Virus record (IMG/VR): IMGVR_UViG_2547132281_000009
Location: 1 to 28,155 of that record
DNA from: a virus
Lineage: Duplodnaviria > Heunggongvirae > Uroviricota > Caudoviricetes
DNA: 28,155 nucleotides
Direction: 5' to 3' (one strand)
This document shows, piece by piece, positions 1,312 to 28,155 of the stretch; the first letter of the stretch is position 1, and every line of letters starts with the position of its first letter. The position numbers were made by a program, and so were the translations under genes. A model generated the notes under the pieces. The model did no database searches, was not told the DNA's origin, and was given only the letters and a program-made list of their open reading frames with translations.

Positions 1312-1326
1312 TGGTGTCCCCTGCAG
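1312..1326. repeat. attL core: 15-bp copy of the 3' end of tRNA-Arg (tggtgtcccctgcag)
   Basis: Exact match to 27071-27085, which is the 3' terminus (CCA end) of the intact tRNA; sequence diverges from the tRNA immediately after. Confidence 0.75.
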
Positions 1327-9722: not shown

Positions 9723-9729
9723 ATAACCA

Positions 9730-9761
9730 CGCTCTTACACATCCCAGCCCTGAAAAAGGGC
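9730..9761 (+). promoter_or_regulatory. nutR site (boxA CGCTCTTA, boxB GCCCTGAAAAAGGGC), followed by the tR1 region
   Basis: cgctcttacacatcccagccctgaaaaagggc immediately after the cro stop, as in lambda. Confidence 0.85.
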
Positions 9762-9840
9762 ATCAAATTAAACCACACCTATGGTGTATGCATTTATTTG
9801 CATACATTCAATCAATTGTTATCTAAGGAAATACTTACAT

Positions 9841-10134
9841 ATGGTTCGTGCAAACAAACGCAACGAGGCTCTACGAATCGAGAGTGCGTTGCTTAACAAA
9901 ATCGCAATGCTTGGAACTGAGAAGACAGCGGAAGCTGTGGGAGTTGATAAGTCGCAGATCAGCAGGTGGAAGAGGGACTGGATTCCAAAGTTCTCAATGC
10001 TGCTTGCTGTTCTTGAATGGGGTGTCGTTGACGACGACATGGCTCGATTGGCACGACAAGTTGCAGCGATTCTCACCAATAAAAAACGCCCGGCGGCAAC
10101 CGAGCGTTCTGAACAAATCCAGATGGAATTCTGA
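9841..10134 (+). CDS. cII: CII transcriptional activator (lambda CII-like, 97 aa)
   Basis: [73 protein letters not shown]... matches lambda CII; the ORF-track N-terminal extension from 9781 is upstream read-through. Confidence 0.95.
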
Positions 10135-10166
10135 GGTCATTACTGGATCAATCCACAGGAGTCATT

Positions 10167-10313
10167 ATGACAAAACAACTCAGTCCTTACCAGGACAAAA
10201 TTCACAAACACATACTACGTGATCGCTTCCTGTCCAGCTTCAAGCAGCCTGGTCGATTCCGGGCTGAGTTGGAAAAAGTGAAGCTGATGCAGAAGGAGAA
10301 AGGTCATGAGTAA
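10167..10313 (+). pseudogene. Truncated 48-codon ORF at the position of the replication-initiator (O-like) gene; probable remnant at a deletion junction
   Basis: Starts with the lambda O-type initiation context aggagtcattATGACAAA right after cII, then stops after 48 codons; gp10 follows 113 bp later. Confidence 0.3.
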
Positions 10314-10426
10314 CATATCTAATCTATCCAAACCGTATGCCTGTTGGTAGCGGTAACCAGTTGGCGAAGTGGAACGGTTGGAATTACTTCCACCGGAAGG
10401 AACCTTGCGATAACGGGAGCGAATAA

Positions 10427-11845
10427 ATGCCGATTCAGCAACTTCCGCTTATGAAAGGTGTCGGCAAAGACTTTCGAAACGCCGACTATATCGACTATCT
10501 GCCAGTGAATATGTTGGCTACACCCAAAGAAATCCTGAACAGCAGCGGATATCTTCGCTCATTCCCGGGCATTGCCAAACGTTCTGATGTGAACGGAGTA
10601 TCGCGAGGCGTCGAGTACAACATGGCGCAGAATGCTGTTTATCGCGTGTGTGGTGGCAAGCTGTACAAAGGAGAAAGTGAAGTCGGTGACGTCGCCGGAA
10701 GTGGTCGTGTATCAATGGCGCATGGTCGGACATCACAGGCGGTAGGTGTTAATGGTCAACTGGTCGAGTATCGCTATGATGGAACGGTTAAAACCGTCTC
10801 AAACTGGCCTACAGACAGCGGATTCACGCAGTATGAGTTAGGTTCTGTTCGTGACATTACGCGCTTACGCGGGCGTTATGCGTGGTCAAAAGACGGCACT
10901 GATTCATGGTTTATCACTGACCTTGAAGACGAATCGCATCCTGACAGATACAGTGCACAATATCGTGCCGAGTCTCAGCCTGACGGTATTATCGGCATCG
11001 GAACATGGCGAGACTTCATCGTCTGCTTTGGTTCATCGACGATTGAATATTTCTCCCTGACTGGTGCAACCACAGTTGGTGCTGCTTTGTATGTCGCACA
11101 GCCATCGCTGATGGTGCAAAAAGGCATCGCCGGGACTTACTGCAAAACGCCGTTTGCTGATTCCTATGCGTTTATCAGCAATCCGGCAACGGGTGCGCCG
11201 TCTGTATACATTATCGGCTCCGGTCAGGTGTCACCAATCGCCAGCGCGAGCATTGAGAAAATTCTCCGCTCCTACACTGCTGATGAACTGGCTGATGGTG
11301 TGATGGAGTCTCTGCGATTTGATGCGCATGAGCTGCTGATTATCCACCTTCCGCGCCATGTTCTCGTGTACGACGCATCTTCAAGCGCCAATGGTCCGCA
11401 ATGGTGTGTGTTGAAAACTGGCTTGTATGACGATGTGTACCGCGCTATCGACTTCATTTACGAAGGCAATCAGATAACGTGCGGCGATAAGCTGGAATCG
11501 GTTACCGGCAAATTGCAGTTCGATATCAGCAGCCAGTACGACAAGCAACAGGAACACCTGCTGTTTACTCCACTGTTCAAAGCGGATAACGCCAGAGTTT
11601 TCGACCTTGAGGTTGAATCGTCAACTGGCGTTGCGCAGTATGCTGACCGCCTTTTTCTCTCTGCAACCACTGACGGCATCAATTACGGGCGTGAGCAGAT
11701 GATTGAGCAGAATGAACCGTTCGTTTACGACAAACGCGTTTTGTGGAAGCGAGTAGGGCGCATCAGGAAAAATGTCGGCTTCAAATTGCGCGTTATCACG
11801 AAGTCACCTGTCACTCTGTCTGGCTGCCAGATAAGGATTGAGTAA
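10427..11845 (+). CDS. P22 gp10-like tail accessory (head-completion/tail hub) protein, 472 aa
   Basis: [48 protein letters not shown]... matches P22 gp10 over its length and size (from memory). Confidence 0.85.
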
Positions 11846-12693
11846 TGGCGGATTCGAATCTCAATGTGCCGGTAATCATCCAGGCTACGCGGCTCGACAC
11901 ATCAGTCCTTCCACGCAATATCTTCTCGCAGTCATATCTGCTGTACGTTATCGCACAGGGTACTGATGTTGGTAACGTGGCGAACAAGGCCAACGAGGCC
12001 GGACAGGGCGCTTATGATGCACAGGTCAGAAACGATGAGCAGGATGTGATTCTCGCTGACCATGAGCAGCGAATTTCTGCTGCGGAAGCAACGCTTGTTA
12101 ATCATGAGGAGCGAATCAGCCAGGCAGAATCAACTCTTCAGGAACATGAAACACGAATAGCTCAGAATGAAAGCGATATTGCGTCGCTTGATACCAGAGT
12201 TCAGTCGCTGGAATCGCAGGTTTCAGACCATGAAACGCGCATCGATGCTCTGAAGTATGCCACTACTCGCAAGAAGTCAGAGGTTGTTTACTCTGGCGTA
12301 TCTGTAACCATCCCGACAGCGCCGACCAACCTTGTTAGCCTACTGAAAACGCTCACGCCGTCATCCGGCACGTTGGCACCATTCTTCGACACCGTTAACA
12401 ACAAGATGGTTGTGTTCAACGAGAACAAAACCTTGTTCTTCAAGCTGTCGATCGTCGGGACGTGGCCCAGCGGAACCGCAAACAGGTCAATGCAGCTAAC
12501 ATTTTCCGGTTCTGCTCCTGACACACTGGTAAGCAGTCGCAACTCGGCGACAACAACCGACAACATCCTGTTAGCTACGTTCTTCAGCGTGGATAAAGAC
12601 GGCTTTCTTGCCACAAATGGCAGTACGTTAACCATTCAGTCAAATGGGGCGGCGTTTACTGCCACAACCATCAAAATCATTGCGGAGCAGTGA
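11845..12693 (+). CDS. P22 gp26-like tail needle protein with extended C-terminal domain (282 aa)
   Basis: Follows gp10; central heptad repeats ([64 protein letters not shown]) typical of the trimeric coiled-coil needle; ~50 aa longer than P22 gp26. Confidence 0.75.
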
Positions 12694-13148
12694 TGATTCA
12701 GTTCAAACCAACGCGAAACATCGACCTGATCGAAGCGGTAGGAAATCACCCTGACATTATCGCCGGGAGCAACAACGGTGATGGATACGACTACAAACCT
12801 GATTGCCGTTACTTTGAGGTGAACGTGCACGGGCAGTTCGGCGGCATTGTTTACTATCAGGAGATTCAGCCGCTGACATTCGATTGCCACGCCATGTACC
12901 TGCCAGAGATTCGCGGCTTCAGCAAGGAAATCGGGCTGGCGTTCTGGCGATACATTCTGACTAACACCACCGTTCAGTGCGTCACATCGTTCGCCGCACG
13001 CAAATTCCGCCACGGGCAGATTTACTGCGCAATGATTGGCCTTAAGCGTGTAGGAACCATCAAGAAATACTTTAAAGGCGTGGATGACGTGACTTTTTAC
13101 AGCGCCACACGCGAAGAACTAATCGACTTCCTGAATCACGGGAGATAG
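12690..13148 (+). CDS. P22 gp14-like head assembly/ejection-associated protein (152 aa)
   Basis: Assigned by conserved position in the P22 order 10-26-14-7-20-16; overlaps upstream stop (ATGA). Confidence 0.6.
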
Positions 13149-13150
13149 CC

Positions 13151-13846
13151 ATGTTATATGCATTTAAGCTGGGCAGAAAACTGCGCGGCGAGGAACCTTA
13201 TTGCCCTGAAAAGGGTGGGAAAGGTGGCAGTTCTGATAAAAGCGCAAAGTATGCAGCAGAAGCTCAGAAGTATGCCGCAGACCTGCAAAATCAGCAGTTC
13301 AACACCATCATGAACAACCTGAAGCCGTTTACTCCTCTGGCTGATAAGTATGTCGGCAGCCTCGAGAACTTATCGTCTCTGGAAGGGCAAGGTCAGGCAC
13401 TTAACCAGTATTACAACTCTCAGCAGTATAAAGACCTTGCAGGTCAGGCTCGCTATCAGAGTCTGGCGGCAGCGGAAGCAACAGGTGGGTTAGGTTCCAC
13501 CGCAACCAGTAATCAGTTAGCAACAATCGCACCAACGCTTGGTCAGCAATGGCTATCTGGACAAATGAACAACTACCAGAATCTGGCAAATATCGGTCTT
13601 GGCGCTCTTCAGGGGCAGGCAAACGCCGGGCAAACATATGCCAACAACATGAGTCAGATTTCACAGCAAAGCGCGGCTCTTGCAGCGGCAAACGCCAACC
13701 GACCATCAGCAATGCAATCTGCTATTGGCGGAGGTGCGTCTGGTGCTATTGCTGGGGCCGGACTTGCGAAATTAATTGGCTCATCAACTCCGTGGGGTGC
13801 TGGTATCGGTGCTGGTATCGGTCTGCTTGGTTCACTGCTTTATTAA
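13151..13846 (+). CDS. P22 gp7-like ejection (internal virion) protein (231 aa)
   Basis: Position in the P22 order and Gly/Ala/Gln-rich low-complexity composition typical of ejection proteins. Confidence 0.65.
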   Translation: MLYAFKLGRKLRGEEPYCPEKGGKGGSSDKSAKYAAEAQKYAADLQNQQFNTIMNNLKPFTPLADKYVGSLENLSSLEGQGQALNQYYNSQQYKDLAGQARYQSLAAAEATGGLGSTATSNQLATIAPTLGQQWLSGQMNNYQNLANIGLGALQGQANAGQTYANNMSQISQQSAALAAANANRPSAMQSAIGGGASGAIAGAGLAKLIGSSTPWGAGIGAGIGLLGSLLY

Positions 13847-13856
13847 GGGGTAATCA

Positions 13857-15206
13857 ATGGCTACGTGGCAACAGGGTATTAATTCTGGTGGTTTTCTGGC
13901 TGGCATTGGTGCGCAAAACGAGAATGCGCCAAAGGCAAAAGACATTAATGCAACGCTTGGCCTGATCCGCGAAAACAATGAACTGGCTCGCTCAGGTGCA
14001 AATAACGTTGGCCTGACCGCGTTACGTGGTCTGGCTGGAGTTGCTGATATTTACAATCAGGAACAGCAACAGAAAGCTATTAGTGCGTTCAATAAGGTTC
14101 ACGCTGATGCATGGGCTTCTGGTGATCCATCGGGACTATTTAAGTTTGCCCAGGAAAATCCAGCGTTTGTTGCACAGGCACAACAGGCGTTTTCTGGTCT
14201 TAATGATCAGCAACGCAACGATATGGGCGATTTAGCCATGAGGGCTAACGTCGCTCTTTCTCAGGGACCGGAAGCCTACAGTAAATTCATTACTGACAAC
14301 AAGGACAGGTTAAATCGCGTGGGGGCGAATGCTGACTGGATGATTCAGACAGGTATCCAGAATCCAGAGCAGCTATCACACATGCTGACTACGATGTCTC
14401 TCGGTGCGCTTGGGCCAGAAAAGGCGTTTGCTGTTCAGGACAAGATGGTTGGTCGCCAGCAGGAGCAGCAAAGAATTAACGAAACCATTCGCAATAATGA
14501 CATGACGAATGCGAGGGCTATTAGGGGGCAGGATCTTTCCTATAAGGCTCAAATGGCAAGACTGAATCACGACAAGTATGTGTTTAAGCAGTCACAGGCG
14601 GCCCTTGAAAGAGCAGGACAACTTCAGGATATGGATGTTTTGTCTCTTAACTCACAGATAGCAGCGACGGGAATTGATCCTCTAACCGGTAAAGCTGCAA
14701 CGTCAGCCAGAATGTCTCAGGCTAAGAGATGGCTTGATGGCAACAATAATTACAACAATGCGTTGATTACTGGTGAGCGAGGGATAGAGAAAATAGATTC
14801 TTTGCTTGGTAAGAAGGAGCTTGAAGGTATCGGTCGCTTCGAAGGAAGAAATATAGATGGCTTCACAAGTGCTGAAGGGCTTGCAAACCGTAATGCGATA
14901 GAAGAATTAAAGTCGGGTGCGTTTGTCCAGAACGTGCAGACTATGCGAGGTATGGGTAGCCTCTCCAATGCTGAAGGCCAAAAACTGGAAAACCTGATCG
15001 CGAAACTCGATATAACACAGCCTGAAGAGGTCGTCAGAAAACAGTTATCTGAAATACGATCTCAATATTCTGTATTTCAAAAGGTTGCAGCAAGGGAGGC
15101 TGAATCAATGGGATACAGTTCATCAGGTTATGACACATATGTTAGTGAGCGAAAATCAGGAAGCGACAGCAATAAGTCCGGTTTCTCGTCTTTATGGGGT
15201 GATTAA
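13857..15206 (+). CDS. P22 gp20-like ejection protein (449 aa)
   Basis: Position in the P22 order; size and composition. Confidence 0.65.
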
Positions 15207-17374
15207 TGGCTAAAGCATGGAAAGATGTTATCGCTTCTCCACAGTATCAGGCGTTAACTGAAGAACAGAAAGCACAGGCTCAAGCGCAATATTTTGATGA
15301 GGTTGTTGCCCCTAAGGCTGGTGACAAATGGGCTGAAGCAAGAGATCAGTTTTATGCAGCATACCCTCCGCCTCAGCAGCAGAAAGAAGAACCATCATTG
15401 ATGCAACAAGCTGGCGATTGGCTCACTGGTGGTCAAAGTGCAGGGCAAATTGCAGAGCAGGCTGGTCGTGGTCTGGTAAACATACCATTTGACGTATTGC
15501 AGGGTGGCGCAAGTCTGATTAATGCAATCAGCCAGGGGCTTGGTGGCCCCAAGGTTTTGGACGATGTCTATCGTCCAGTAGATCGACCAACAGACCCTTA
15601 TGCGCAAGCTGGTGAAACAATTGGTGGGTATCTCCTGCCAATTGGCACAGCGGCAAAAGCTGCTGGAGCGCCAGCAAAGCTCGCTGGAGATATCGGTTCC
15701 GCAGGAAACATGATTGCAGGTTCTCTTGCTGATGCTGCAAATCAGGAGGGCGACTTTGCACAAAATGCTGCCATTAACGGTGGTATCAATATTGGTGCTC
15801 AGGGGATACTTTCTGGGGCTGGAAGGATCTTAACCTCTAAATCACCTCAAGTTCTTGGTGGCGGGGCAATAAATTCCGCTGCTGATGTTTCGAAAATGGC
15901 AAAGTCTGGTACAGGAAGAGAGATTATTGCCAGACAGTCAGCTAATGTGTCAGACGAAATAGCAAAAGCAGCAGATACTGCTGGAATAGATATCAACGCA
16001 TTAACTCCTGGCATGAGATCAGGTAGTCGTGGTCTTGCTCAGGCGGAGGGGATTCTGGCGTCAAAGCCCGGAATTACACAGGATGCACACACCAAAGCAT
16101 TCAGTGAAATAGAGTCGAAATTTAACTCAGCATTGGATGAGTTTGGGGCTGAAGCAGGAACTGCATCAGAAAAAAGTGCAGCCATAAAACAAAGGGTTTT
16201 GGCAAGTATTGATAAAATGAAAAATTCAGAAAAGGCCGCATGGGATAGCGTCCGCTCCACGATGCCTGACGCAAAGGCCAGAATGTCAAACCTGAACGCT
16301 ACAATTCAGGGTGATATTTTGGCTGGCATGCCGCTAACTCCTGAGATGAAACAATTCGCATCTGCTTATGCTAAAACTGGTAAAAAAGGAATCACGTTTG
16401 ATGCCATGAAGGCATGGCGAAGTAAACTTGCTGACGCAGAGCAGAAGTATATAAGGTCTGGTGAGGCAAATACGGCAAGGCGCATGGCTGAGCTTCGTGA
16501 TGCAGCAACGGAAGATATGCGCATAATGGCTCAAAATGGCGGTTTTCTTGATGACTGGCAAAAAGCTAATGATCTGTCAAAGGCAAGATTTACAGCACAA
16601 GAACAGGCTGAAGCAGCGTTTGGTAGAGACCTTGCAACTGATCAGTTGGTAACTAATGGATCTAAGGCGTTACAGGGTTCAGCAAAAAGTGGAACAGGTC
16701 AGTTCCATAAAATAATAAGCGCCCTACCTGAGTCGGAACGCGCGCCAGCAATTGCATCAATATTACAAGATGCAATGTCGCAAGGGGTACGCGGAGGTAA
16801 GTCTGAAGAGGCTGGAATTAAGCATATCGCGACTATTCTTACCCCACAAAACGTGAAGGCAATTAGTCGATATTCTCCAGAACTTGGCAGGATTACAAGT
16901 TCATACGGAGAACTTGCACGAGCAGCAACAAAGCCACTTCGATATGTTGAACAGACAGGGCGATCTATGCCAGCCATTAGCACTCTTGAGAATGGCCTTC
17001 ATCCAGTTTTAGAGAGCGCATTGTCTGGCGCTTTTAGAACTACTGGCACTATCGCAGGGTTCTCTGGAGGAGGCGTTATTGGAGCAATAGCGGGTGGCGC
17101 TGCAGGTGGGGCAATTGATGCAATGGCAAAAGGAGCGATAGCGAAATTATCCGCAACTAGAAGCGGTCGTTACGCTATTGAAAAGGCTGTTCAAGAGGCA
17201 ACAAAGGCAGTTAAGGTTGGGGCAAGTGATGGTGCATTAGCGGCGGCGGAACGCAGATTTATGGCAAATAAGGCCGCCGTAAAAGCAATACGCGAGGCAC
17301 TAGGAAACGAAGAGTTCCAGCGTTTAGCAAGAGCTGGAATTGTGGCATCGCTAAGCGGAATGGCACAGGAGTAA
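15206..17374 (+). CDS. P22 gp16-like ejection protein (722 aa)
   Basis: Position in the P22 order; last gene of the rightward structural block; longer than P22 gp16 as I recall it. Confidence 0.65.
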
Positions 17375-17767
17375 TTAGTCATCCATGGATGGATTGAGCT
17401 TATCTCGTGTTGATGTGGCAATTTTCCCAACATTTTTCAACCAAGATTTTAAGAAGGATATGTCGTCCTTAATATCATGAATATCCTCATTCTTTATACG
17501 ATCAACCTTATCCTCTAAGCTCTCTATAGAACGCTCAATGCTAGACAGAGAGATTTTTAAGTCCCCTTGCTCACGTTCCAGTGAGGATTTGAGAGCACAA
17601 TATTCGTTTTCTAGAATTCCTATTTTTTTTGTTAGAGAGTGCATTCGATACTCATACACCAAACCAGAAACGACTAATGCAGCCAACAGAAACCATTCAA
17701 GCACACCAACCTCCTTAGTTTTGTGCAGGATACCAGATGGTTTGGAGTGAGATAAAGGTTTGTCCAC
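17375..17767 (-). CDS. Small membrane-anchored coiled-coil protein (130 aa), candidate superinfection-exclusion or accessory component
   Basis: ORF fills the entire gap between the gp16 stop and the PIN gene; one hydrophobic helix (WFLLAALVVSGLVY) followed by heptad-like charged repeats; GTG start with weak Shine-Dalgarno, so the start is uncertain. Confidence 0.45.
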   Translation of the reverse strand: MDKPLSHSKPSGILHKTKEVGVLEWFLLAALVVSGLVYEYRMHSLTKKIGILENEYCALKSSLEREQGDLKISLSSIERSIESLEDKVDRIKNEDIHDIKDDISFLKSWLKNVGKIATSTRDKLNPSMDD

Positions 17768-17787
17768 TTTTGGCTATAGCTTTATGT

Positions 17788-17815
17788 ATCCGTGACGGAT
17801 GTAATTATCACGGAT
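17788..17815. promoter_or_regulatory. Inverted-repeat element ATCCGTGACGGAT ... TCACGGAT between the PIN gene and the downstream membrane-protein gene
   Basis: 13-bp palindrome at 17788-17800 and a third half-site copy at 17808-17815; no U-tract, so not a canonical terminator; possible operator. Confidence 0.3.
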
Positions 17816-17831
17816 GCATAAAAATTATATT

Positions 17832-18380
17832 TTAGTGTAATCTCTGATCGTCTGAATCGTGTAAGAACTCCATGAGACTTTGAACCGGAATTGGTTCTAT
17901 TGATGATAATGTGAACACAGGAATATTGAGACTTTTGCAACGCTCAAACACTCCCTTATCATGAGTCCATACCTCGTCAGCATTAATTGCTCTTGCAATT
18001 GCTATTATTTGTCTGTCAAACTTAATTTTGTTTGCTGTACCTTCTGTGCTAATTTTCCTTAATTCTTTTAATGTTGGTATCGATGCGCATTCAATAGCAG
18101 CCAACTCATCAAATGATACAGTTTCGAAGCACGATAACGATTTGATAACATTCAGTTTTTCTTGTTGGTAATCTTTATGGATTCCAACTAAAAACTCCGC
18201 CAATACAGGAGTTGGAACGATGATTGTCCCGTTCTTGTTATCTATTCGATCAACAAGAGCTTCTGCTCTTCTTTTGGCATCTGGAATCTCAGAACCAAGT
18301 ATAGGGTCAGATAATCTATAATCGTGTTCTATATCTGATAGTAGGTATACCAGAATATTGGTATCTAAAATTACTCGCAA
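17832..18380 (-). CDS. PIN-domain nuclease-like protein (182 aa)
   Basis: N-terminal MRVILDTNILVYLL with the conserved Asp in the first strand, further acidic residues and a C-terminal WTHD motif, consistent with a PIN fold; TTG start with AGGAAG Shine-Dalgarno, overlapping the upstream stop by 10 nt. Confidence 0.7.
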   Translation of the reverse strand: MRVILDTNILVYLLSDIEHDYRLSDPILGSEIPDAKRRAEALVDRIDNKNGTIIVPTPVLAEFLVGIHKDYQQEKLNVIKSLSCFETVSFDELAAIECASIPTLKELRKISTEGTANKIKFDRQIIAIARAINADEVWTHDKGVFERCKSLNIPVFTLSSIEPIPVQSLMEFLHDSDDQRLH

Positions 18381-19090
18381 TTTATCTTCCTCAGAGTCCT
18401 AAGGATTGAATCAACATCGCGTTCCTCGGACCACTGATCTCCAGGAACTTGCTTGATAGCATTAATAGCATCCTTGAGTGATGATTTTTTGAGCAATACA
18501 AATGAAGTTATTTTTAGTTTCTTTAGCTCCCATTTGTTGTTCTTTTTTTCCCAGCACCCATCTCCTTTAACCCTAATATATTTGAATAGATGGGACCCAA
18601 GAGCTGCCGCCAAATCAGGGGTTGCCTCGCACTTGAATGTTTCACCGTTGGCTCCCTCAATACGCACAGGTATTGAGTTGTCTTTTCCGCCAACACTGTA
18701 TAGCCTTCCTTGAACTTCTGACGTTTTTGTTATGAGTAAAGGGATTGGCTCCTTTTTTACTCGCGGGAATGCGATAATGGTTGAGTGGTTTCGTCCGAGT
18801 AGTTTCGCTGAAAAACCATCATGCTCCAGTAAATTAACAATTTTTTGATACGCGGGTGATTTCTCTTTGGCTGAGAGAGAGGCCCTTGCTATGACAGCGT
18901 TATAACAAATATCATTATCGACCCATGCATTTAAGTCAGCCGATCCTTCACTTACACAGTCGAAGTGAACAGAATCTGCAGAACCGTATAGATCTACGAG
19001 AGCAGACATATACTTGACCAACTTAGCCATTGACAGCTGGCCAGGGGTGGTTCCGTCAAGTTTTAATGTGAGTCCATTGCTTTTTTTCAT
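18371..19090 (-). CDS. Unknown-family protein (239 aa), upstream partner of the PIN-domain gene
   Basis: ATG at 19090; stop overlaps the PIN start (operon); AT-rich; no recognisable motif, no P-loop, no transmembrane segment. Confidence 0.65.
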   Translation of the reverse strand: MKKSNGLTLKLDGTTPGQLSMAKLVKYMSALVDLYGSADSVHFDCVSEGSADLNAWVDNDICYNAVIARASLSAKEKSPAYQKIVNLLEHDGFSAKLLGRNHSTIIAFPRVKKEPIPLLITKTSEVQGRLYSVGGKDNSIPVRIEGANGETFKCEATPDLAAALGSHLFKYIRVKGDGCWEKKNNKWELKKLKITSFVLLKKSSLKDAINAIKQVPGDQWSEERDVDSILRTLRKINCE

Positions 19091-20184: not shown

Positions 20185-20485
20185 ATGACGAGTGTAGCAA
20201 TTGCAGAACATACAATCAACGTTCCATTCCACGGAACAAATCTCTTTTTGGTCAGCATTAACAATGAACCTTACGTTCCTATGAAACCCGTTGTAGAAGG
20301 CATGGGTATGGTTTGGGCTGCTCAATTTGTTAAATTAAAACAGAGATTTGTCAAAGGTATTTCGGAAATCGAAATACCTTCTGCTGGCGGTAAACAGTTA
20401 ATGATATGCCTTGCCTTTCGTAAGTTTGCGGCTTGGCTTTCAAGCATTCAGCCAAACAAAGTCCGTCCTGAAATCCGCGACAAGG
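20185..20485 (+). pseudogene. ant: Antirepressor Ant, N-terminal part (AntA-type domain), interrupted by IS insertion
   Basis: AntA-like N-terminal domain (VPFHGTNLFLV...EPYVPMKPVVEGMGM); reading frame runs into the IS at 20486 and resumes in frame at 22928. Confidence 0.75.
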
Positions 20486-20556
20486 GTAAGCGTACAGCCT
20501 GAACCGTCTGGTCAGAATCTGACAAATTAGACAAAGTGGTGTCCACCAAATAAGTA

Positions 20557-20958
20557 GTGGGAACCAAAGTGTCAGATATGCAGAAAAATGTGACTCCCGG
20601 CAGGCGAAAAGGCTGCCCTAATTATCCTCCCGAATTTAAACAGCAGCTCGTTGCTGCCTCCTGTGAACCCGGGATATCCATCTCAAAACTTGCTCTTGAA
20701 AATGGCATTAACGCCAATCTGTTGTTCAAATGGCGACAACAATGGCGCGAGGGAAAGCTGCTATTACCTTCTTCAGAGAGCCCCCAGCTACTTCCTGTGA
20801 CTCTCGATGCAGCTGCCGAACAGCCAGAATCGCTCGCAGAGGACCCGGAAACCCTCAGTATCAGCTGTGAGGTAACGTTCCGGCACGGGACGCTCCGCTT
20901 CAATGGCAATGTCAGCGAAAAGCTCCTGACTCTGCTGATACAGGAACTGAAGCGATGA
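20557..20958 (+). CDS. IS66-family accessory protein TnpA (orf1)
   Basis: First ORF of the IS; typical IS66 orfA sequence. Confidence 0.8.
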   Translation: MGTKVSDMQKNVTPGRRKGCPNYPPEFKQQLVAASCEPGISISKLALENGINANLLFKWRQQWREGKLLLPSSESPQLLPVTLDAAAEQPESLAEDPETLSISCEVTFRHGTLRFNGNVSEKLLTLLIQELKR

Positions 20959-21302
20959 TCCCGTTACCTTCCGGGACCAAAATTTGGCTGGTTGCCGGTA
21001 TCACCGATATGAGAAATGGCTTCAACGGCCTGGCTGCGAAAGTACAAACGGCGCTGAAAGACGATCCCATGTCCGGCCATGTTTTCATTTTCCGGGGCCG
21101 CAGCGGCAGTCAGGTTAAACTGCTGTGGTCCACCGGTGACGGACTGTGCCTCCTGACCAAACGGCTGGAGCGTGGGCGCTTCGCCTGGCCGTCAGCCCGT
21201 GATGGCAAAGTGTTCCTTACGCAGGCGCAGCTGGCGATGCTGCTGGAAGGTATCGACTGGCGACAGCCCAAGCGGTTGCTGACCTCCCTGACCATGCTGT
21301 AA
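20955..21302 (+). CDS. IS66-family accessory protein TnpB (orf2)
   Basis: Overlaps the orf1 stop (ATGA); [31 protein letters not shown] is the conserved IS66 orf2 N-terminus. Confidence 0.85.
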
Positions 21303-21351
21303 ATCTCTTTATCCTGGTTGTCACAGAATAAGCCCGGTAAAATACGGGCTT

Positions 21352-22890
21352 ATGAACGACATCTCTTCTGACGACATCTTCCTGCTGAAACAGCGCCTGG
21401 CCGAACAGGAAGCGCTGATCCACGCCCTGCAGGAAAAGCTGAGCAACCGGGAGCGCGAAATAGACCATCTGCAGGCGCAGCTGGATAAACTCCGCCGGAT
21501 GAACTTCGGCAGTCGTTCCGAAAAAGTCTCCCGCCGTATCGCACAAATGGAAGCCGATCTGAACCGGCTTCAGAAAGAGAGCGATACGCTGACTGGTAGG
21601 GTGTATGACCCGGCTGTACAGCGTCCGTTGCGTCAGACCCGCACCCGTAAGCCGTTCCCTGAATCACTACCCCGTGACGAAAAGCGACTGTTGCCTGCGG
21701 CGCCGTGCTGCCCGAACTGCGGCGGTTCACTGAGCTATCTGGGCGAGGATACCGCCGAACAGCTGGAGTTGATGCGTAGTGCCTTCCGGGTTATCCGGAC
21801 GGTACGGGAAAAACATGCCTGTACTCAGTGCGATGCCATCGTGCAGGCACCTGCACCTTCGCGGCCCATCGAGCGGGGTATCGCCGGACCGGGGCTGCTG
21901 GCCCGCGTGCTGACCTCGAAGTATGCAGAGCACACCCCGCTGTATCGCCAGTCAGAAATATACGGCCGGCAAGGTGTGGAGCTGAGCCGTTCACTGCTGT
22001 CGGGCTGGGTGGATGCATGCTGCCGGCTGCTGTCTCCGCTGGAAGAGGCGCTTCATGGCTATGTCATGACTGACGGCAAACTCCATGCCGATGATACCCC
22101 GGTCCAGGTACTGCTGCCGGGTAATAAGAAGACGAAGACCGGGCGGTTGTGGGCGTATGTTCGTGATGACCGCAATGCCGGGTCAGCGTTGGCACCTGCA
22201 GTGTGGTTCGCTTACAGCCCGGACAGAAAAGGCATCCATCCGCAGACTCATCTTGCCTGCTTCAGCGGTGTGCTGCAAGCGGATGCGTACGCCGGGTTCA
22301 ACGAGCTGTATCGCAATGGTGGGATAACGGAAGCTGCCTGCTGGGCTCATGCCCGCCGAAAGATCCACGATGTGCACGTCCGCATCCCGTCAGCACTGAC
22401 GGAAGAAGCCCTGGAGCAGATCGGTCAGTTGTACGCCATAGAGGCGGATATAAGGGGAATGCCGGCAGAGCAGCGGCTTGCTGAACGTCAGCGAAAAACG
22501 AAACCGCTGTTGAAATCCCTGGAAAGCTGGTTGCGTGAAAAGATGAAAACCCTGTCGCGACACTCAGAACTGGCGAAAGCGTTCGCATACGCCCTGAACC
22601 AGTGGCCGGCGCTGACGTACTATGCAGATGATGGCTGGGCTGAGGCGGACAATAACATCGCTGAAAATGCGTTGCGGATGGTCAGTCTGGGCCGCAAAAA
22701 CTACCTGTTCTTCGGTTCGGATCATGGAGGAGAGCGGGGAGCGCTGCTGTACAGCCTGATCGGGACGTGCAAACTGAACGGAGTGGAGCCAGAAAGCTAC
22801 CTCCGCTATGTCCTTGACGTCATAGCCGACTGGCCGATAAACCGGGTCGGCGAACTGCTCCCCTGGCGCGTAGCACTGCCGACTGAATAA
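21352..22890 (+). CDS. IS66-family transposase TnpC (orf3), 512 aa
   Basis: N-terminal leucine-zipper region, CxxC...CxxC zinc motif and C-terminal DDE-type core characteristic of IS66 transposases. Confidence 0.9.
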
Positions 22891-22927
22891 CACATCCCCG
22901 TCAATACGGTTCTTGCTGCACGCTTAC

Positions 22928-23558
22928 CGACAAGGTAATCCAGTATCAGGAAGAGTGTGACGATGTGCTCTACGAGTACTGGACTAAAGGTCATGTAGTT
23001 AACCCACGCAAAGCTAAAAAAGCGTTGCCGGGTAAAATCACCACTGAACAGCAGGAAGCCATTAAACAACTCGTCATGAGTCGCGGTCAGTCTCTACCAA
23101 AAGAAAAACAGGCTAAGGCGATGATCACCATGTGGTCGTCACTGAAATCTCATTTTGGGTGTTCATACAAAGAAATCAGTGAGGAGCAGTTTACCGAAGC
23201 ACTGTCACTTGCTGCTCGCGTTCCGCTCGAAGGTGAGTTCATCGGCAAACAAGAGAAGAAAACCAACGAGCTTTCTGCAAAAGAAGCAAACAGCCTTGTA
23301 TGGTTATGGGATTATGCCAACCGCTCACAGGCATTATTCCGCGAACTGTATCCGGCGCTAAAACAAATTCAATCGAACTATTCCGGCAGATGTCATGACT
23401 GCGGTTATGAGTTCTCCCGTATTATCGATATGGCGAGAGATGTTTTAATCAACCACACACGAGATGTTGATATCAATGAGCCAGACGGACCAACGAATCT
23501 TTCCGCATGGATGAGACTTAAGAATAAAGAATTACCTCCTTCAGTACATAACTACTGA
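22928..23558 (+). pseudogene. ant: Antirepressor Ant, C-terminal part, downstream of the IS insertion
   Basis: In frame with the N-terminal part once the IS and one target-duplication copy are removed (2450 bp); combined length ~308 aa, similar to P22 Ant. Confidence 0.7.
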
Positions 23559-23577
23559 CAGATAACCAACGCAACGA

Positions 23578-23600
23578 CCCAGCTTCGGCTGGGTTTTTTT
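23578..23600 (+). terminator. Rho-independent terminator after ant
   Basis: Stem cccagc/gctggg with ttcg loop followed by TTTTTTT. Confidence 0.8.
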
Positions 23601-23658
23601 ATGCCCAAAATTCATCGTAGCCATGCTTCGGTGATTCCTTGTATCTGGAGCAAATTAA

Positions 23659-25662
23659 ATGACAGACATTACAGCCAATGTTGTAGTGAGCATGCCTTCG
23701 CAACTCTTTACTATGGCTCGTTCTTTTAAAGCCGTAGCTAATGGCAAAATTTATATCGGAAAAATTGACACTGATCCGGTAAATCCTGAAAACCAGATCC
23801 AGGTTTATGTAGAGAATGAAGACGGTTCTCACGTTCCTGTTTCGCAACCAATCATCATTAACGCTGCTGGTTACCCGGTATATAACGGGCAGATTGCCAA
23901 GTTCGTAACTGTGCAAGGTCATTCGATGGCTGTTTATGATGCATATGGTGCACAGCAGTTTTATTTTCCTAATGTGCTGAAGTATGATCCTGATCAGTTA
24001 TCTATAAAACTATCAAGTAATATTGGATACAAATACATTGGAATGGTAGAGAGCGCTAACTCCCTTAAAGATATACAAGGAATGTCGATATCTGATAAAT
24101 TATATTTAAAATCATACGTATCCGGACTCGAACTTGGTGGTGGGTTTGTTGTAGCTGTAGACAAGTCAATTGCAGTTGATAACGTAATGGTTTTAGAAGG
24201 TAACGGTGTAAATTGGAAGAGAATAAACCCAAGCCTTGAGTTTTCTGTATATGACGCTGGTTACAGCGGCGCTGGGGATATTGCATTATTTATTAATAAA
24301 ATAAACTCTCTAGGTTATGATTGCGTTGTCCCATGTAGTGGAGAATTCTCGTCTTTAATTGATATTGATTTCGCGAAGGGTGGGTTAAGAGGAACGAATA
24401 AATGCGTTTTAACTGAGATTAATGGGATATCAGGTGATTATGCAATTAGGTTAAGTAACTCTAATATTTCTTATGATAATAGGGATGAAATAAATGCAAC
24501 ATCAATTTTAGATGGCATATCTTTTAAGATGCTAGGATCTAAAAAGATTTTACTTGGAGGTATTGGCGCTGGTGAATTATCAGAGTTAAGAATAAGTAAT
24601 TCTTCATTCATATCATCTGCTGGAATTGAGTTTCTTGATAATTCATATAGAATTTTATTTGACAAAGTAACAATATCAAGATGTCTAAACAACACAATTA
24701 TATTTAATTCTCCATCAAACTCAGGCGAGGTAATGACATTTAATAATTGTTGGGTTGTTGATAATGGAGGTCCATTGACAATTAGAAATGGTCAATTTAT
24801 TTTTAACTGTTGCTCTATGCCAGCAGGTAAGAAAGAAGGTTATTTTGATTCTACTGTTTTTATTGAAGATAACGCAACCGTTGTTTACTCAAGTGGAAAT
24901 ATTGAGTTTCAGCCAGGTCAAAGCTTTGTGGCGTTCTCTGCATCTGGAAGCACAAGAATAAGCATTAAAGATACAACGCTACTTACTCCCTCTGGATATA
25001 GTTCAGTTCCGTTTGTTGTAAATGATGATTCAGTACTTTCATTAACAAATTGCTCATTGCCTTTATTTGACCAAATGGATTTGGCGACAGGATCAGCAAC
25101 TAGACAGGTAGTTGGAGGTAATAGTAAAAAAATAATGTCATATGGATGCTATCCACGATCTGGATTTATAACAACTCAGTGGGATAAAGGGAACATAGTT
25201 AGTCCATACATAAATTCGCTATCAAATGGAAGTGGACAGTTTTTAAACTACTCTAACTGGAGCCTTCAACAAACTGGTTCAGGTGTTGTTACAGCAGGAA
25301 CGGATTCTGATGTTCCAAATGATATTATGTTTTCCAGGTCTTTGTATGTAGCAATACCATCTATAGGAGCATCTGCAAAATTTTATCAGGAGTGCTCAGA
25401 CTGCTCACCAGGACGATATTTCCAGTTAGGTTTTTGGGCTAAGAATCAAGTGACAACAATCTCTGGTATTGAGTTTTTTGATAAAGAAGGGAACTCTGTT
25501 CAGGGAAAAGCAACATTTACAATTCCACTAGGATCCACATGGAATTTCTACGCATTAATAGATATTGTTCCTCCTGGAGCAAGCAAGGTTAGGATTGATT
25601 TTGATGTTTCCGGTGAAGCAGGCTCTCTTCATTTGCATAATGTTATTTATGGGCTGATTTGA
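23659..25662 (+). CDS. Tailspike protein: P22 gp9-like N-terminal head-binding domain fused to a divergent beta-helix receptor-binding domain (667 aa)
   Basis: N-terminus [59 protein letters not shown]...[13 protein letters not shown]...LKYDPDQ matches the P22 tailspike head-binding domain; the remainder is AT-rich and not P22-like. Confidence 0.9.
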
Positions 25663-25753
25663 AGATTTCACATCTAATGTGACCAAACTTAGACAAAACA
25701 AAGCCTTGTCTGGATTGCAAAGCTTTGTGCTCTTCGATAATGGTAAAGGTGGG

Positions 25754-26911
25754 TCACTCCACCTTTTCATCAAGCCAGTCCGCCCACCACTGCATCATTT
25801 CTCTGCGCTTATCGAGATACTGAGCATGGTTGTAAATACCGCGCACAGATCCGCCGTTGGCATGTGCCAGCTGCACTTCAATAGCGTCAGCAGGCCATTC
25901 GTGCTCGTTCATAATCGTGCTGAATTCATGCCTGAATCCGTGACCGCTTTCCAGACCTTCATAGCCGATTTGTTTGATCACAAGCAATACCGCGTTCTCG
26001 CAGATTGGCTTCTTCTTATCGTTGCGCCCGGCAAAAACAAACTCTGATACTGGTTTGGTGATTGAGCTTAGCGTAGTGAGAAGTTCAACCACCTGGTCTG
26101 ACATAGGAACAACATGAATCTTGCGGCCCTTCATCACACTGGCGTCGATGGTGATAATCCTGTTTTCAAAATCGACGTTCTTCCATTGCATGGAACGAAG
26201 CTCTTTCGTTCTTAGGGCTGTGTAGCGTAAAACTTTGGTCGCAATGAGCGATACGATGCTTCCTGAAAATGTTGCCAGTGCTTTGTTGAATGCAGGGATC
26301 TGGTCTGCTGGAAGAAACGGGAAGTTCTTCTTGCGGTATCCTTTCATGGCGTCTGCAAGGTCAGGTGCCGGGTTATATTTAGCCCTTCCGGTGACAATAG
26401 CGTAACGGAAAACCTCGCCGCATCTTCTGCGGGCTTTGTTGGCTCGCTCCATTGCACCGCGATCTTCAAATCTGCGGATTACTTCCAACAGTTGCATCGG
26501 CTCAATATCCTGAATTTCAAGGCTGCCGATGATGGGTAAAATGTCGTCATCAAACATTTTGGCAAGTTCAGTTGCATAGCCTACTGACCAGACTTGCTTC
26601 TTGTGCTCGTACCATTCCTTGTAAATCGCACTAAATGAATTGTTGTTAGACGAAGCCTTTTTCGCTTTTACCGGATCGATGCCAACCGAGATGTCTTTCC
26701 TCGCGGTCCATGCTTTATCTCTTGCCTCCTGCAAAGTCATAAGCGGATATTTTCCTACGGTCAGGATTTTCTCCTTACCGTCAATCTTGTAGCGAAGCTG
26801 CCATACCTTTTTCCCGGATACAGGGACATAAAGGTACAGGCCATTACCATCGAGAAGGCGGTATGGTTTTTCTTTCGGCTTTGCTGCTTCAATCTGCTTA
26901 ACGGTGAGCAT
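25754..26911 (-). CDS. Tyrosine integrase, P4 family (IntS-like)
   Basis: N-terminus MLTVKQIEAAKPKEKPYRLLDGNGLYLYV and C-terminal catalytic region (HGFRHEF...LAHANGGSVRGIYNHAQY) match CPS-53 IntS-type integrases; an upstream in-frame ATG at 26947 is an alternative start. Confidence 0.95.
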   Translation of the reverse strand: MLTVKQIEAAKPKEKPYRLLDGNGLYLYVPVSGKKVWQLRYKIDGKEKILTVGKYPLMTLQEARDKAWTARKDISVGIDPVKAKKASSNNNSFSAIYKEWYEHKKQVWSVGYATELAKMFDDDILPIIGSLEIQDIEPMQLLEVIRRFEDRGAMERANKARRRCGEVFRYAIVTGRAKYNPAPDLADAMKGYRKKNFPFLPADQIPAFNKALATFSGSIVSLIATKVLRYTALRTKELRSMQWKNVDFENRIITIDASVMKGRKIHVVPMSDQVVELLTTLSSITKPVSEFVFAGRNDKKKPICENAVLLVIKQIGYEGLESGHGFRHEFSTIMNEHEWPADAIEVQLAHANGGSVRGIYNHAQYLDKRREMMQWWADWLDEKVE

Positions 26912-27070
26912 GGGTAAAAATCCGGTGGGTAAAATTATTTTATCCACTTTTTACCCGTCATGGAGTGCGGCTGTCAACGATCTGACGCGAACCATGACGA
27001 ACCGTGAATATACGGAAGGATTGATATTCAGGGGATTTTGCGGACTGGTACGGATGGGAGCGAACTGATA

Positions 27071-27147
27071 AATGGTGTCCCCTGCAGGAATCGAACCTGC
27101 AATTAGCCCTTAGGAGGGGCTCGTTATATCCATTTAACTAAGAGGAC
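27071..27147 (-). tRNA. argW: tRNA-Arg (anticodon CCT), argW; its 3' end forms the attR core
   Basis: Minus-strand sequence GTCCTCT...CTCCTAA...GGTTCGATTCCTGCAGGGGACACCA with acceptor-stem pairing, CCT anticodon and encoded CCA; ends may be off by 1-2 nt. Confidence 0.9.
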
Positions 27148-27222
27148 AATGCGGCATGAGTATACCCGCTAATGGAGTGCGGGGTAAGTACGCTGCCGCT
27201 CGATTGCTTAAACCCTCGCCAT

Positions 27223-28155
27223 TTATGCCGGGTTTTTATCATTTTTCTTAATGTTTTCCGCACGTTCTGCTTTTTGGCGTGCTTCTGCTTTACGCTTGTT
27301 GCTCATGTCGTTACGAATCTGTGCATGACTCATTAACGCGAAGATAAAGGTGCCGCCGCAGATGTTCCCCGCTAAAGTAGGTAGTGCGAAGGGCCAGATG
27401 AAATCGCTCCAGTGCAGCGTACCGTTAAACACCAGATAGAGGATTTCAACAGAACCGACCACGATATGGGTGGTGTCACCCAGGGCAATAAGCCAGGTCA
27501 TCAATATAATCACCACAATCTTTGCCGCACCTGCTGCAGGAAACATCCATACCATAGTGGCGATCAGCCAGCCGGAAATGATCGCGTTGGCAAACATCTC
27601 GCTGGGGGTGTTCTTCATCACATCCATGCCGATTTTGACAAATGCATCGCGAGTTTCTTCATTGAAGATAGGCATATATTCAAATGCCCATGCAGCAATA
27701 CCTGTCCCGAGAATATTACCCAGCAGCACGACGCCCCATAATCGCATAAGTAAGCCGACGTTGCTCATTGTCGGTTTTTGCATGACGGGTAGTACCGCAG
27801 TCACGGTGTTTTCGGTAAATAATTGCTGGCGGGCCATAATGACGATAATAAAACCAAAGGTATAACCGAGATTCTCCAGTAAGAAGCTGCCCGGCACACC
27901 TTCCAGTTCGACATGAAATATCCCTTTTGCCAGTAACGAAGCGCCCATCGACAGACCCGCCGCAATGGCTGACCACAGTAGCGCCATTGCGTCGCGTTCC
28001 AGCTCTTTTTCACCATCCTGGCGGATATGCTCATGAATTGCCATCGCCCGGGAGGGGAGTCGGTCTTCATCTATTTCTATTTTTTTGCCGCGCTCTTTTT
28101 CTTCGCTCTCAACTTCAATTTCGTCGCTGTGTTGATCAATTTTGTCGTTGTCCAT
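27223..28155 (-). CDS. yfdC: Inner-membrane formate/nitrite-transporter-family protein YfdC (310 aa)
   Basis: Multi-TM protein matching YfdC as I recall it; yfdC is the chromosomal neighbour of argW in E. coli; start codon is at the window edge. Confidence 0.85.
   Translation of the reverse strand: MDNDKIDQHSDEIEVESEEKERGKKIEIDEDRLPSRAMAIHEHIRQDGEKELERDAMALLWSAIAAGLSMGASLLAKGIFHVELEGVPGSFLLENLGYTFGFIIVIMARQQLFTENTVTAVLPVMQKPTMSNVGLLMRLWGVVLLGNILGTGIAAWAFEYMPIFNEETRDAFVKIGMDVMKNTPSEMFANAIISGWLIATMVWMFPAAGAAKIVVIILMTWLIALGDTTHIVVGSVEILYLVFNGTLHWSDFIWPFALPTLAGNICGGTFIFALMSHAQIRNDMSNKRKAEARQKAERAENIKKNDKNPA

Follow-up and report, generated by a model that had tools for sequence, protein, structure and literature searches.

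The tailspike encoded at 23659..25662 of the window, by which we mean the whole 28,155-nt stretch of DNA analysed here, is likely that of an Sf6/HK620-like (Lederbergvirus, P22-like) prophage at argW, equipped with a TSP4-type receptor module for the O78 O-antigen and by now a relic. The gene lies on the plus strand and, according to the list of open reading frames, runs from an ATG start through an intact frame of 667 codons; its product matches PHROG 4217 ('tail protein') with an E-value of 1e-264. An exact-sequence look-up returned the same protein from RefSeq as WP_000129921.1, and at least 22 independent contigs encode it without a single change. Minus-strand ORFs within the gene (e.g. 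23599-23922 and 24471-24695) were discarded as spurious, being short, AT-rich and unsupported. The gene is a real but ordinary, already catalogued example of a module swap: the family and its specificity have been published, and an O78 receptor domain on a Lederbergvirus anchor has likewise been reported (PMC10408124, Table S1, Fig. 7).

Residues 1-113 (23659..23997, plus strand) constitute a head-binding, or particle-attachment, domain of the Sf6/HK620 type, recognised by Pfam PF09008 Head_binding with an E-value of 2.8e-67 and a score of 224.5 bits against a cutoff of 24, and closed by the YDPDQ hinge motif at residues 108-112. Over 112 residues, 104 are identical to Sf6 gp14 (92.9%) and 86 to P22 gp9 (76.8%). 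The first-pass annotation, made from the sequence alone, had described the first ~115 residues as following P22 gp9 almost residue for residue; that the domain belongs to the P22 family holds, but the near-identity does not, as the closer match is to the Sf6 type. In the monomer model this domain is poorly resolved (pLDDT below 50 for residues 1-126), because few of the aligned sequences carried it, and it was assigned by sequence matches to solved structures, not by the model. The tailspike is predicted to assemble into a homotrimer, which would dock through this domain onto the gp4/gp10 tail hub.

The junction between the two modules falls in codons 112-114 (23992..24000, plus strand), where P22-like DNA homology stops and TSP4-type homology starts. 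The DNA up to 23999 is 94-96% identical to that of Sf6, HK620 and N7, and the DNA matches to Sf6, HK620, CUS-3, N7 and CurroJimenez all stop at 23997-24000. The alignment with 5W6H, the structure of CBA120 TSP4, begins at residue 113, with Q113/L114 placed opposite S483/L484 of TSP4. This is within ~4 residues of an engineered TSP4 graft point that is known to be functional, since a graft of TSP4 residues 480-1036 alone makes a different phage infective for O78 (PMC9965104). Of the genomes in the E. coli collection, 1094 have a match to the gene, which in most cases covers just the first ~341 nt, and at least 80% of the gene is found in 13. That most genomes share only the 5' part, together with the common end of the P22-like matches, bears out the earlier suggestion that such modules are exchanged horizontally. 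Domain, junction, genome and fold matches also lend good support to the central proposal of the first-pass annotation, a chimera of a P22-family head-binding domain and a beta-helix receptor module.

The composition of the gene follows this division only loosely. Its head-binding part (23659-23997) has a GC content of 41.9% and the remainder (23998-25662) one of 35.4%, with a GC3 of 23.8%, compared to 46.2% for the whole window and 49% for the adjoining virion genes. The lowest-GC stretch of 1665 nt in the window is 23902-25566, and in a scan of the whole window no stretch of that length outside the tailspike gene fell below 39.1%, confirming that the receptor part is markedly AT-rich. A GC profile across the gene, which had been proposed as a check on the domain boundary, does show the drop; however, GC declines gradually and not in one step, and the head-binding part already lies below the prophage average.

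Beyond the hinge, the domain order and fold are those of TSP4, as judged from Foldseek and the domain map in the literature. A neck helix and a small D3' module occupy residues ~113-189 (23995..24225, plus strand), with approximate borders transferred by homology: D3' of TSP4 comprises residues 503-557 (PMC7506556), which map to residues 133-187 of our protein, and the model shows a helix at 111-117 followed by strands and a helix at 126-188. Next comes a right-handed parallel beta-helix, D3, at residues ~190-470 (24226..25068, plus strand), defined by the model and Foldseek and presumed to be the domain that binds the O-antigen and acts as glycosidase. The AlphaFold model shows short repeated strands here, with a pLDDT of ~70-97 over D3 and of 80-97 as given for residues 130-470. 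The C-terminal beta-sandwich, D4, covers residues ~480-667 (25096..25659, plus strand; border approximate), with model strands at 491-660 and Foldseek matches to CBM61 and CBM11 over ~145-157 columns, in line with the carbohydrate-binding-module-like D4 of TSP4, a beta-sandwich resembling carbohydrate-binding proteins (PMC7506556). In Foldseek, 5W6H ranks first (E 3.9e-57, 56% identity over 571 columns), with the K2-2 tailspike and CBA120 TSP2 next. The model and these matches to tailspikes and depolymerases support the beta-helix that had been read from the C-terminal part, and the NCCSMPAG motif singled out there is indeed present, at residues 383-390 within D3. Across 37 homologues, more than 120 columns are invariant, among them the acidic residues D207, D221, D237, E253, E309, E324, D335, E357, D368, E416 and D457. 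The remark that the protein has the length of P22 gp9 is correct for its 667 residues, but this is a coincidence: near-identical alleles in ACN001, XB2 and NC22 measure 668 residues and Sf6 gp14 measures 623.

The gene sits in a prophage that is defective. Integration took place at the tRNA-Arg(CCU) gene argW (27073..27147, minus strand, ARAGORN), which holds the attL core at 27073-27087; a 15-nt copy of the argW 3' end found by local alignment at 1312..1326 (plus strand) is the attR core, and the prophage therefore spans ~1312-27087. A 16-nt tRNA-like repeat at 1620-1635, which as an att site would leave torI outside the prophage, was rejected in favour of this attR core, since the torI/xis ORF (1400-1600, minus strand) and the att sites have the same layout in K-12 CPS-53. 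At the other end the integrase gene intS (25754..26947, minus strand) is convergent with the tailspike gene; its listed ORF has a GTG start, relatives are annotated as intS of 385 residues, and the assignment also draws on the Pfam families of identical contigs. No O-antigen modification gene (gtr or oac) appears in the ORF list between the tailspike gene and intS. The late-gene order is the expected one, with the tailspike gene last, 3' of gp10, gp26, gp14, gp7, gp20, gp16 and mnt/arc/ant, and adjoining intS and argW; PHROG assignments cover the virion genes at 10427-17374 and ant. At 10326..10421 lies a deletion joint that fuses the cII/DUF2740 region to gene 10, as seen from collinearity with ACN001, where window positions 10142-10326 correspond to 978-1162 of its contig L007 and positions 10421-11846 to 9205-10630. 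By collinearity, PHROG and ORFs, the replication, nin, lysis, terminase, portal, scaffold, coat and gp4 genes are missing, which renders the prophage defective. Moreover, ant is split into an N-terminal part (20185-20499) and a C-terminal part directly upstream of the tailspike gene (22965-23558; both by PHROG) by IS66-family tnpA, tnpB and tnpC (20557..22890, plus strand; PHROG matches, and Pfam families of the identical contig L009). In the gap that separates ant from the tailspike gene, a pattern scan found a terminator-like hairpin followed by a T-run (23576..23595, plus strand), a match to the consensus only. A promoter scan in and around the tailspike gene gave 11 matches, as against 10.5 ± 3.2 in shuffled sequence, and hence yields no expression signal that could be claimed; the gene is probably silent at present.

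What does the receptor module recognise? Residues 113-667 match 5W6H with an E-value of 1.1e-213, and identity to CBA120 orf213 amounts to 58.3% over residues 123-667 (tblastn), or 60% in the alignment from residue 190. TSP4 cleaves the O78 O-antigen (PMC8825819, PMC10408124), a target that prophage tailspikes had earlier helped to predict (PMC6966330). The module has matches in the tailspikes of at least eight phage genera, for the most part from O78 hosts; phages recorded on such hosts and carrying homologues at 53-63% identity are ECOO78, EC1-UPM (O78:K80), phiWAO78-1, AVIO78A, ASO78B, XT18/32/73 and phiHAO78-1. A neighbour-joining tree places the module with ECOO78 gp42 (73%) and the prophage protein of H10407 (O78:H11; 72%), and O78-linked members (ECOO78/ep3, the H10407 prophage and ZY22049) occur in both main clades. 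Seventeen complete E. coli genomes have the module, and 8 of them possess the O78 wzx/wzy cluster, versus 39 of 5426 overall (Fisher p = 8e-14). Under a published definition, members of the O78 receptor-binding subtype have a receptor domain that shares at least 30% identity, at a coverage of 60% or more, with an O78 tailspike validated by experiment (PMC10408124); the match to TSP4, at 58.3% over residues 123-667 and E 1e-213 over residues 113-667, falls within it. A stricter threshold of more than 75% identity, used in one study for specificity subtypes in the Ackermannviridae and quoted in PMC10408124, lies above both the 60% to TSP4 and the best match to a phage of O78 hosts (73%, ECOO78 gp42). 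An O78 specificity of this allele, and its glycosidase activity, thus appear probable by homology.

These matches do not support the novelty that the first-pass annotation had implied, a receptor module of as yet undescribed specificity: an E-value of 1e-213 to 5W6H and 55-63% identity to tailspikes of many O78-host phages leave no place for an orphan, a reading we rejected on the strength of these full-length PDB and phage matches. It had itself listed, as the outcome that would speak against it, a C-terminal domain matching a tailspike of known specificity, and the structure and tailspike comparison returned precisely this in O78-specific TSP4. The description of the module as 'unrelated' is right with respect to the body of the P22 endorhamnosidase, but not in general, as close characterised relatives exist.

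The hosts of the nearest alleles complicate the picture. Thirteen complete genomes carry a module 93-99.6% identical to ours, and nine of these are not assigned to O78: Survcare253 is O100 with an O154 remnant, XB2 is O35, NC22 is O145, and the O78 list does not include another six isolates from humans. The window itself matches ETEC TW14425 (ST23) at 100%. Could the same architecture then serve another glycan, either that of the Salmonella serogroup of the 86%-identical relatives, or O35, O100 or O145? The identity to the experimentally tested TSP4 is merely 58-60%, and the closest relatives outside the E. coli cluster are prophage tailspikes of Salmonella enterica (77-86% identity). As the three O-types are unrelated, however, they cannot each be the target, and the non-O78 hosts share the flank of ACN001, which is O78 and has a module 99.5% identical in DNA to that of the window: over 18,440 nt beside argW, there are 0-3 differences among ACN001, XB2, NC22 and Survcare253. 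All examined copies of the near-identical allele are defective prophages in one clonal background, and the five examined (the window, Survcare253, ACN001, XB2 and NC22) each bear a different internal deletion. We infer that O-antigen switching took place in one clone that carries a dead prophage. With so similar a flank and such differently deleted copies, the O-type of these non-O78 carriers is therefore uninformative on the former hosts of the phage, and O35, O145 and O100 were rejected as targets. Furthermore, the H10407 prophage and ECOO78 fall in the same tree clade as the module, O78-linked members being present in both main clades, and the published definition at 30% identity or above keeps O78 specificity across the whole divergence (PMC10408124). 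Another glycan is for these reasons unlikely.

A different question is whether the host keeps the tailspike because it uses it, as a free O-antigen depolymerase acting on its own LPS or that of competitors, as a barrier to superinfection, or as a component for another resident P22-like phage. In all five examined copies, gp14-gp16, the tailspike gene and intS are intact despite the different deletions, and the gene is disrupted in only one of the 13 genomes (by IS2, in VTB97022v). Yet deletions in the middle of a prophage spare end-proximal genes by default, and copies that are 98.4-99.6% identical have had little time to decay. No expression route is evident either, with the late-gene activator region deleted, ant split by IS66 and a terminator-like hairpin upstream, and hosts that have changed to O35, O145 or O100 lack the presumed substrate. 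Use by the host accordingly strikes us as quite improbable. We would attach equally little weight to a specific form of co-option, in which the tailspike would be a host-encoded O78 depolymerase against competing O78 strains, or a spare module that recombines at YDPDQ into superinfecting P22-like phages; the idea starts from the intactness of the gene, along with intS and the ejection-protein genes, through at least five independent deletions and through host switches from O78 to O35, O145 and O100. Lastly, because GC is at its minimum here within the window and the surrounding prophage is decayed, the AT-rich 3' part might be taken for a degenerate or mis-assembled insert instead of a functional domain. 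Such a reading deserves next to no credence: the part consists of 555 codons without interruption, and it is refuted by the more than 120 invariant columns in 37 homologues, by a confident model that matches a crystal structure, and by recurrence of the same protein on at least 22 independent contigs.

Under the preferred reading, an O78-type tailspike of an Sf6/HK620-like prophage, residues 1-113 would have docked the trimer onto the tail hub in the virion, and residues 113-667, comprising the neck, D3', the D3 beta-helix and the D4 beta-sandwich, would have bound and endolytically cleaved the E. coli O78 O-antigen, allowing the particle to reach the outer membrane. Recombination joined the two halves directly after the conserved YDPDQ hinge, at the very point where P22-like phages swap their tailspike bodies and where engineered grafts are functional. 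With the replication-to-gp4 genes lost and IS66 in ant, the prophage can no longer make particles; its tailspike, though intact, therefore most likely survives as a relic and not as a functioning part.

Tailspike receptor modules decide which O-serogroup can be attacked by a phage, an engineered pyocin or a reporter phage, and among avian pathogenic and enterotoxigenic E. coli O78 is one of the major serogroups. The allele described here is a further natural case of a TSP4-type O78 module on a podovirus anchor, and its natural graft point agrees with the engineered ones, which could be useful for O78-targeted reagents. It also illustrates that tailspike type and host O-type can disagree if a dead prophage passes through an O-antigen switch, a mismatch that limits the prediction of serotypes from prophage tailspikes. 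Otherwise, the scientific addition is small: RefSeq already contains the protein, both the family and its specificity have been described in the literature, and similar prophage tailspikes have already been used in the O78 prediction for CBA120.

Among known systems, P22 gp9 resembles our tailspike in plan, with a head-binding domain, a hinge and a beta-helix body, in its 667 residues, and in the 77% identity over residues 1-112. Its body, which acts on the rhamnosyl-galactose linkage of Salmonella O:4/O:9/O:1, is unrelated in sequence: the phmmer alignment covers residues 1-150 with clear identity only to residue ~117, the Foldseek TM-score is 0.17, and neither method found homology of our body to P22 gp9 residues ~125-666. 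Sf6 gp14 and HK620 gp9 come closer in context, as each is likewise the last late gene, convergent with intS at argW, and follows virion genes (gp10 to gp16) with 94-96% DNA identity to the window. Their receptor bodies, directed at the S. flexneri Y O-antigen (Sf6) and O18A1 (HK620), nevertheless show no detectable sequence similarity to ours beyond residue ~119, and Sf6 carries oac beside its tailspike gene, whereas the window has no O-antigen modification gene there.

For the receptor module, the closest relatives from E. coli phages are the Jilinvirus ECOO78 gp42/ep3 tail protein-depolymerase and WP_000872050.1 of the H10407 prophage, at 72-73% identity over residues 190-667 and from O78 hosts. 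Both have N-terminal anchors that differ from ours, and the H10407 copy belongs to another type of prophage (in which a holin and a GH19 endolysin follow it) and is truncated by an IS66/ISCro1 insertion. CBA120 TSP4 (orf213, PDB 5W6H), an O78-specific tailspike from a Kuttervirus, aligns end to end with the module, residues 113-667 against 483-1036, and presumably shares its glycan target and inter-subunit glycosidase mechanism. The difference lies at the N-terminus, where the 480 residues of TSP4 (baseplate anchor, XD1-3 and D1-D2 head) build a branched four-spike complex on a myovirus, whereas our tailspike has a 113-residue podovirus head-binding domain in their place; identity between the two modules is below 75%. 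The same arrangement as in the window, judged by its published description, is that of RHB17-C10_Prophage_RBP (CP057690.1), a Lederbergvirus anchor delineated at residue 123 and joined to an O78-subtype domain (PMC10408124). That protein, with an O78 assignment made purely in silico, is presented as an example of cross-genus transfer (PMC10408124, Fig. 7 and Table S1).

The tailspike gene (23659-25662, plus strand) is a single long ORF encoding 667 aa, and its chimeric architecture, proposed in the first-pass annotation together with an exchangeable receptor-binding module, is near-certain. Matches to P22-like phages (Sf6, HK620, CUS-3, N7, CurroJimenez and others), which run through the virion genes at 91-96% identity, all stop at 23997-24000, one to two codons past a YDPDQ hinge (codons 108-112). 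From aa 113 onward, the protein instead aligns to tailspike protein 4 (TSP4) of phage CBA120: in a sequence search against all PDB chains, aa 113-667 matched 5W6H in a single unbroken alignment (E 1.1e-213), while Sf6 and P22 tailspike matches were confined to the first ~119-150 residues. The receptor domain is thus unrelated to the P22 body, as had been proposed, but it is no orphan in specificity. The anchor is indeed a head-binding domain (PF09008, aa 1-113, E 2.8e-67), the sole Pfam domain that a Pfam scan found in the protein. However, it does not follow P22 gp9 almost residue for residue, since identity over 112 aa is 76.8% to P22 gp9 versus 92.9% to Sf6 gp14. The length shared with P22 gp9 is a coincidence, the sister alleles of ACN001, XB2 and NC22 being 668 aa.

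A second mosaic boundary lies within the head-binding domain. Compared with the Survcare253 allele, 15 of the 22 nucleotide differences in the gene fall in its first 198 nt and the 600 nt upstream contain 127 differing positions, whereas the module is 99.6% identical. This indicates that the module moves as a unit, recombined onto slightly different anchors.

In base composition, the AT-rich remainder of the gene (23998-25662; 35.4% GC, GC3 23.8%) stands out from the head-binding part (23659-23997; 41.9%), the gp10-gp16 block (49.0%), int (47.5%) and the whole window (46.2%). Among all 1665-nt stretches of the window, 23902-25566 is the GC minimum, and those outside the tailspike gene never fall below 39.1%, so the AT-richness noted from the sequence is genuine and, at this locus, extreme. 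The anticipated compositional break at the domain boundary is only partly borne out: the drop exists, but it already starts within the head-binding part and is gradual, not sharp. Furthermore, the last 1450 nt of the homologues examined have 39.6-45.6% GC, all above the module's 35.4%, so none of them is its direct donor.

Structure prediction and structure search confirm that the C-terminal part is a beta-helix module. The AlphaFold model, built on an input alignment of 37 homologues, has a confident body (pLDDT 80-97 over aa 130-470), in which the strands are short and repeated, as in a parallel beta-helix, and a beta-sandwich comes after them; the NCCSMPAG motif remarked on earlier does lie in the receptor part, at aa 383-390. 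Foldseek against the PDB ranked 5W6H first (E 3.9e-57, 56% identity), followed by Klebsiella K2 tailspikes, CBA120 TSP2 and Acinetobacter depolymerases, with carbohydrate-binding-module matches on the C-terminal ~150 residues.

What, then, does the module recognize? The first-pass annotation had named similarity to a tailspike whose specificity is known as speaking against its reading, and 5W6H is such a case: according to PMC8825819 and PMC10408124, CBA120 TSP4 cleaves the O78 O-antigen of E. coli, and its aa 480-1036, grafted on the TSP4 N-terminus of another phage, suffice for spotting on O78 (PMC9965104). Using tblastn, 37 of 50,697 phage records had identities of 53-63% over 80% or more of the query. 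These belong to Jilin-, Kutter-, Gamaleya-, Kaguna-, Nonana- and Justusliebigvirus, among others, and many come from O78 hosts (ECOO78, EC1-UPM (O78:K80), phiWAO78-1, AVIO78A, ASO78B, XT18/32/73 and phiHAO78-1). A neighbour-joining tree from the identity matrix of aa 190-667 has two clades, one formed by lytic phages around TSP4, and the other in which the window protein is joined by Salmonella prophage alleles, ECOO78 gp42 (73%) and, at 72%, a protein from a prophage of H10407 (O78:H11), meaning that O78-host-linked members are present in both. We consider it likely that the module is specific for O78. In Salmonella enterica, including subsp. diarizonae, the module occurs at 66-86% identity in 667-aa head-binding-domain tailspikes and in 765-aa proteins (P0002-P0009, P0013 of our protein search); their precomputed Pfam label, PF27114, had no match to the window protein in the Pfam scan.

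The prophage at argW lies entirely within the window. Its attR core (1312-1326), 15 nt of the argW 3' end, lies downstream of torI (1400-1600), and is followed by early-left genes including erf and ssb, a c2-like repressor (8708-9421), and cro and cII. At a deletion joint at about 10326-10421 (noted region 10142-10427), the cII/DUF2740 region is fused directly to gene 10, with loss of the genes for replication, nin, lysis, terminase, portal, scaffold, coat and gp4. The same prophage occurs in Survcare253, ACN001, XB2 and NC22, where it has four further internal deletions, each different from the others and from that of the window. After the joint come gp10, gp26, gp14, gp7, gp20 and gp16, in that order. 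Between gp16 and the mnt/arc/ant region, three minus-strand genes of 38-40% GC (17375-19090) encode proteins of 130 aa, of 182 aa with a PIN domain (PF01850, E 4e-10) and, overlapping, of 239 aa; PADLOC gave no match on this block, a candidate moron of the toxin-antitoxin or exclusion type. The antirepressor gene ant (20185-23558) is split by IS66-family tnpA, tnpB and tnpC (20557-22890); the copy of the module in the unrelated H10407 prophage is likewise truncated by an IS66/ISCro1 insertion (4279-6894 of that region, L006). A terminator-like hairpin separates ant from the tailspike gene, with intS, convergent, 91 nt downstream, and argW beyond it. The last 30 nt of argW (27073-27102) recur at the far prophage end as two pieces, 1312-1326 and 1620-1635, the latter a 16-nt T-arm segment that precedes the torI start by 20 nt, within the promoter region of that gene. 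No O-antigen modification genes (gtr, oac) were found in the window. This prophage is incapable of particle formation and, with the late-activator region gone, the tailspike has no evident route of expression. It is most likely an intact relic; that it has been retained because it was co-opted is speculative and highly improbable.

Among 5426 complete E. coli genomes, a set without the complete TW14425 genome (CP127265), 1094 matched the tailspike gene, most of them with 90-95% identity and over only about the first 341 nt, while in 13 the match covered 80% or more of the gene; a sensitive search that used just the module as query found 17. An O78 probe, the ACN001 wzx-wzy segment annotated 'O78 family', detected 39 genomes, including 8 of the 17 module carriers (ACN001, H3, VTB97022v, ZY22049, E7, SEC470, H10407 and APEC17), an enrichment with Fisher p = 8e-14 among genomes that are phylogenetically non-independent. 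Other carriers differ in O-type, XB2 being O35 and NC22 O145, and Survcare253 having an O100-family cluster that adjoins the remnant of an O154-type one, accompanied by a second galF and an IS1. Such a mismatch could be taken to mean a different specificity. However, the 18,440 nt of chromosome adjacent to argW are the same in XB2 and NC22 as in ACN001 (O78), with three differences in Survcare253, and in all four the tailspike and intS alleles are alike, each prophage having its own deletion. The simplest reading, which we infer from this, is that these carriers represent one ST23-like clone. The clone would have taken up the phage while O78, later exchanging its O-antigen locus and passing on the dead prophage vertically, which accounts for the mismatch without invoking another specificity. 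The composite Survcare253 locus (NZ_CP076305.1 2,711,116-2,731,958), its O100-family cluster complete and its O154-family cluster partial, appears to be the footprint of an O-antigen replacement in a clone with O78, O35 and O145 sister strains. Window positions 20659-28155 (7497 nt) match AELE01000004.1 of ETEC TW14425 at 100% identity (Guinea-Bissau 1996; ST23, STh, CS14).

As such, we are fairly confident in an overall reading in which an Sf6-type anchor and a TSP4-type, probably O78-specific module are joined at the YDPDQ hinge, within a defective argW prophage. While chimerism and module exchange thus stand, the implied novelty of specificity does not. The protein is an exact match to RefSeq WP_000129921.1, 'phage head-binding domain-containing protein', one of the 152 members of its 90% cluster, and occurs on at least 22 contigs. 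Moreover, the tailspike of Lederbergvirus prophage RHB17-C10 has been assigned to an O78 subtype, delineated at aa 123, and cross-genus module transfer has been illustrated by Lederbergvirus and Kagunavirus O78 and O145 tailspikes (PMC10408124). A review (PMC6966330) attributes to Plattner et al. 2019 that the O78 target of TSP4 was first suggested by similarity to prophage tailspikes, and then confirmed by infection. The phenomenon was therefore read correctly, but it is well known and the protein has been catalogued before, so that the tailspike is not new as an example of module swapping.

The integration site itself resembles that of K-12 CPS-53, which has the same split argW-repeat layout (11276 and 11585 of that region, L017). 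In K-12 the prophage lies next to dsdC, whereas window positions 1-870, in the left flank, encode the C-terminal portion of an MFS permease for sucrose or oligosaccharides, placing the prophage of this lineage between the csc sucrose locus and argW. The csc-locus neighbours of the permease are present in Survcare253 and NC22; both annotate the permease as a pseudogene, owing to an internal stop. As for the tailspike, published descriptions of TSP4 (PMC8825819, PMC7506556) distinguish the head (D1-D2), a neck that is helical, the small module D3' (residues 503-557), the beta-helix D3, which is catalytic, and D4, a large beta-sandwich. With Q113/L114 aligned to S483/L484 of TSP4, the window protein comprises the neck, D3', D3 and D4, which it has in common with TSP4, but where TSP4 has its own anchor and head, it carries a podovirus head-binding domain instead.
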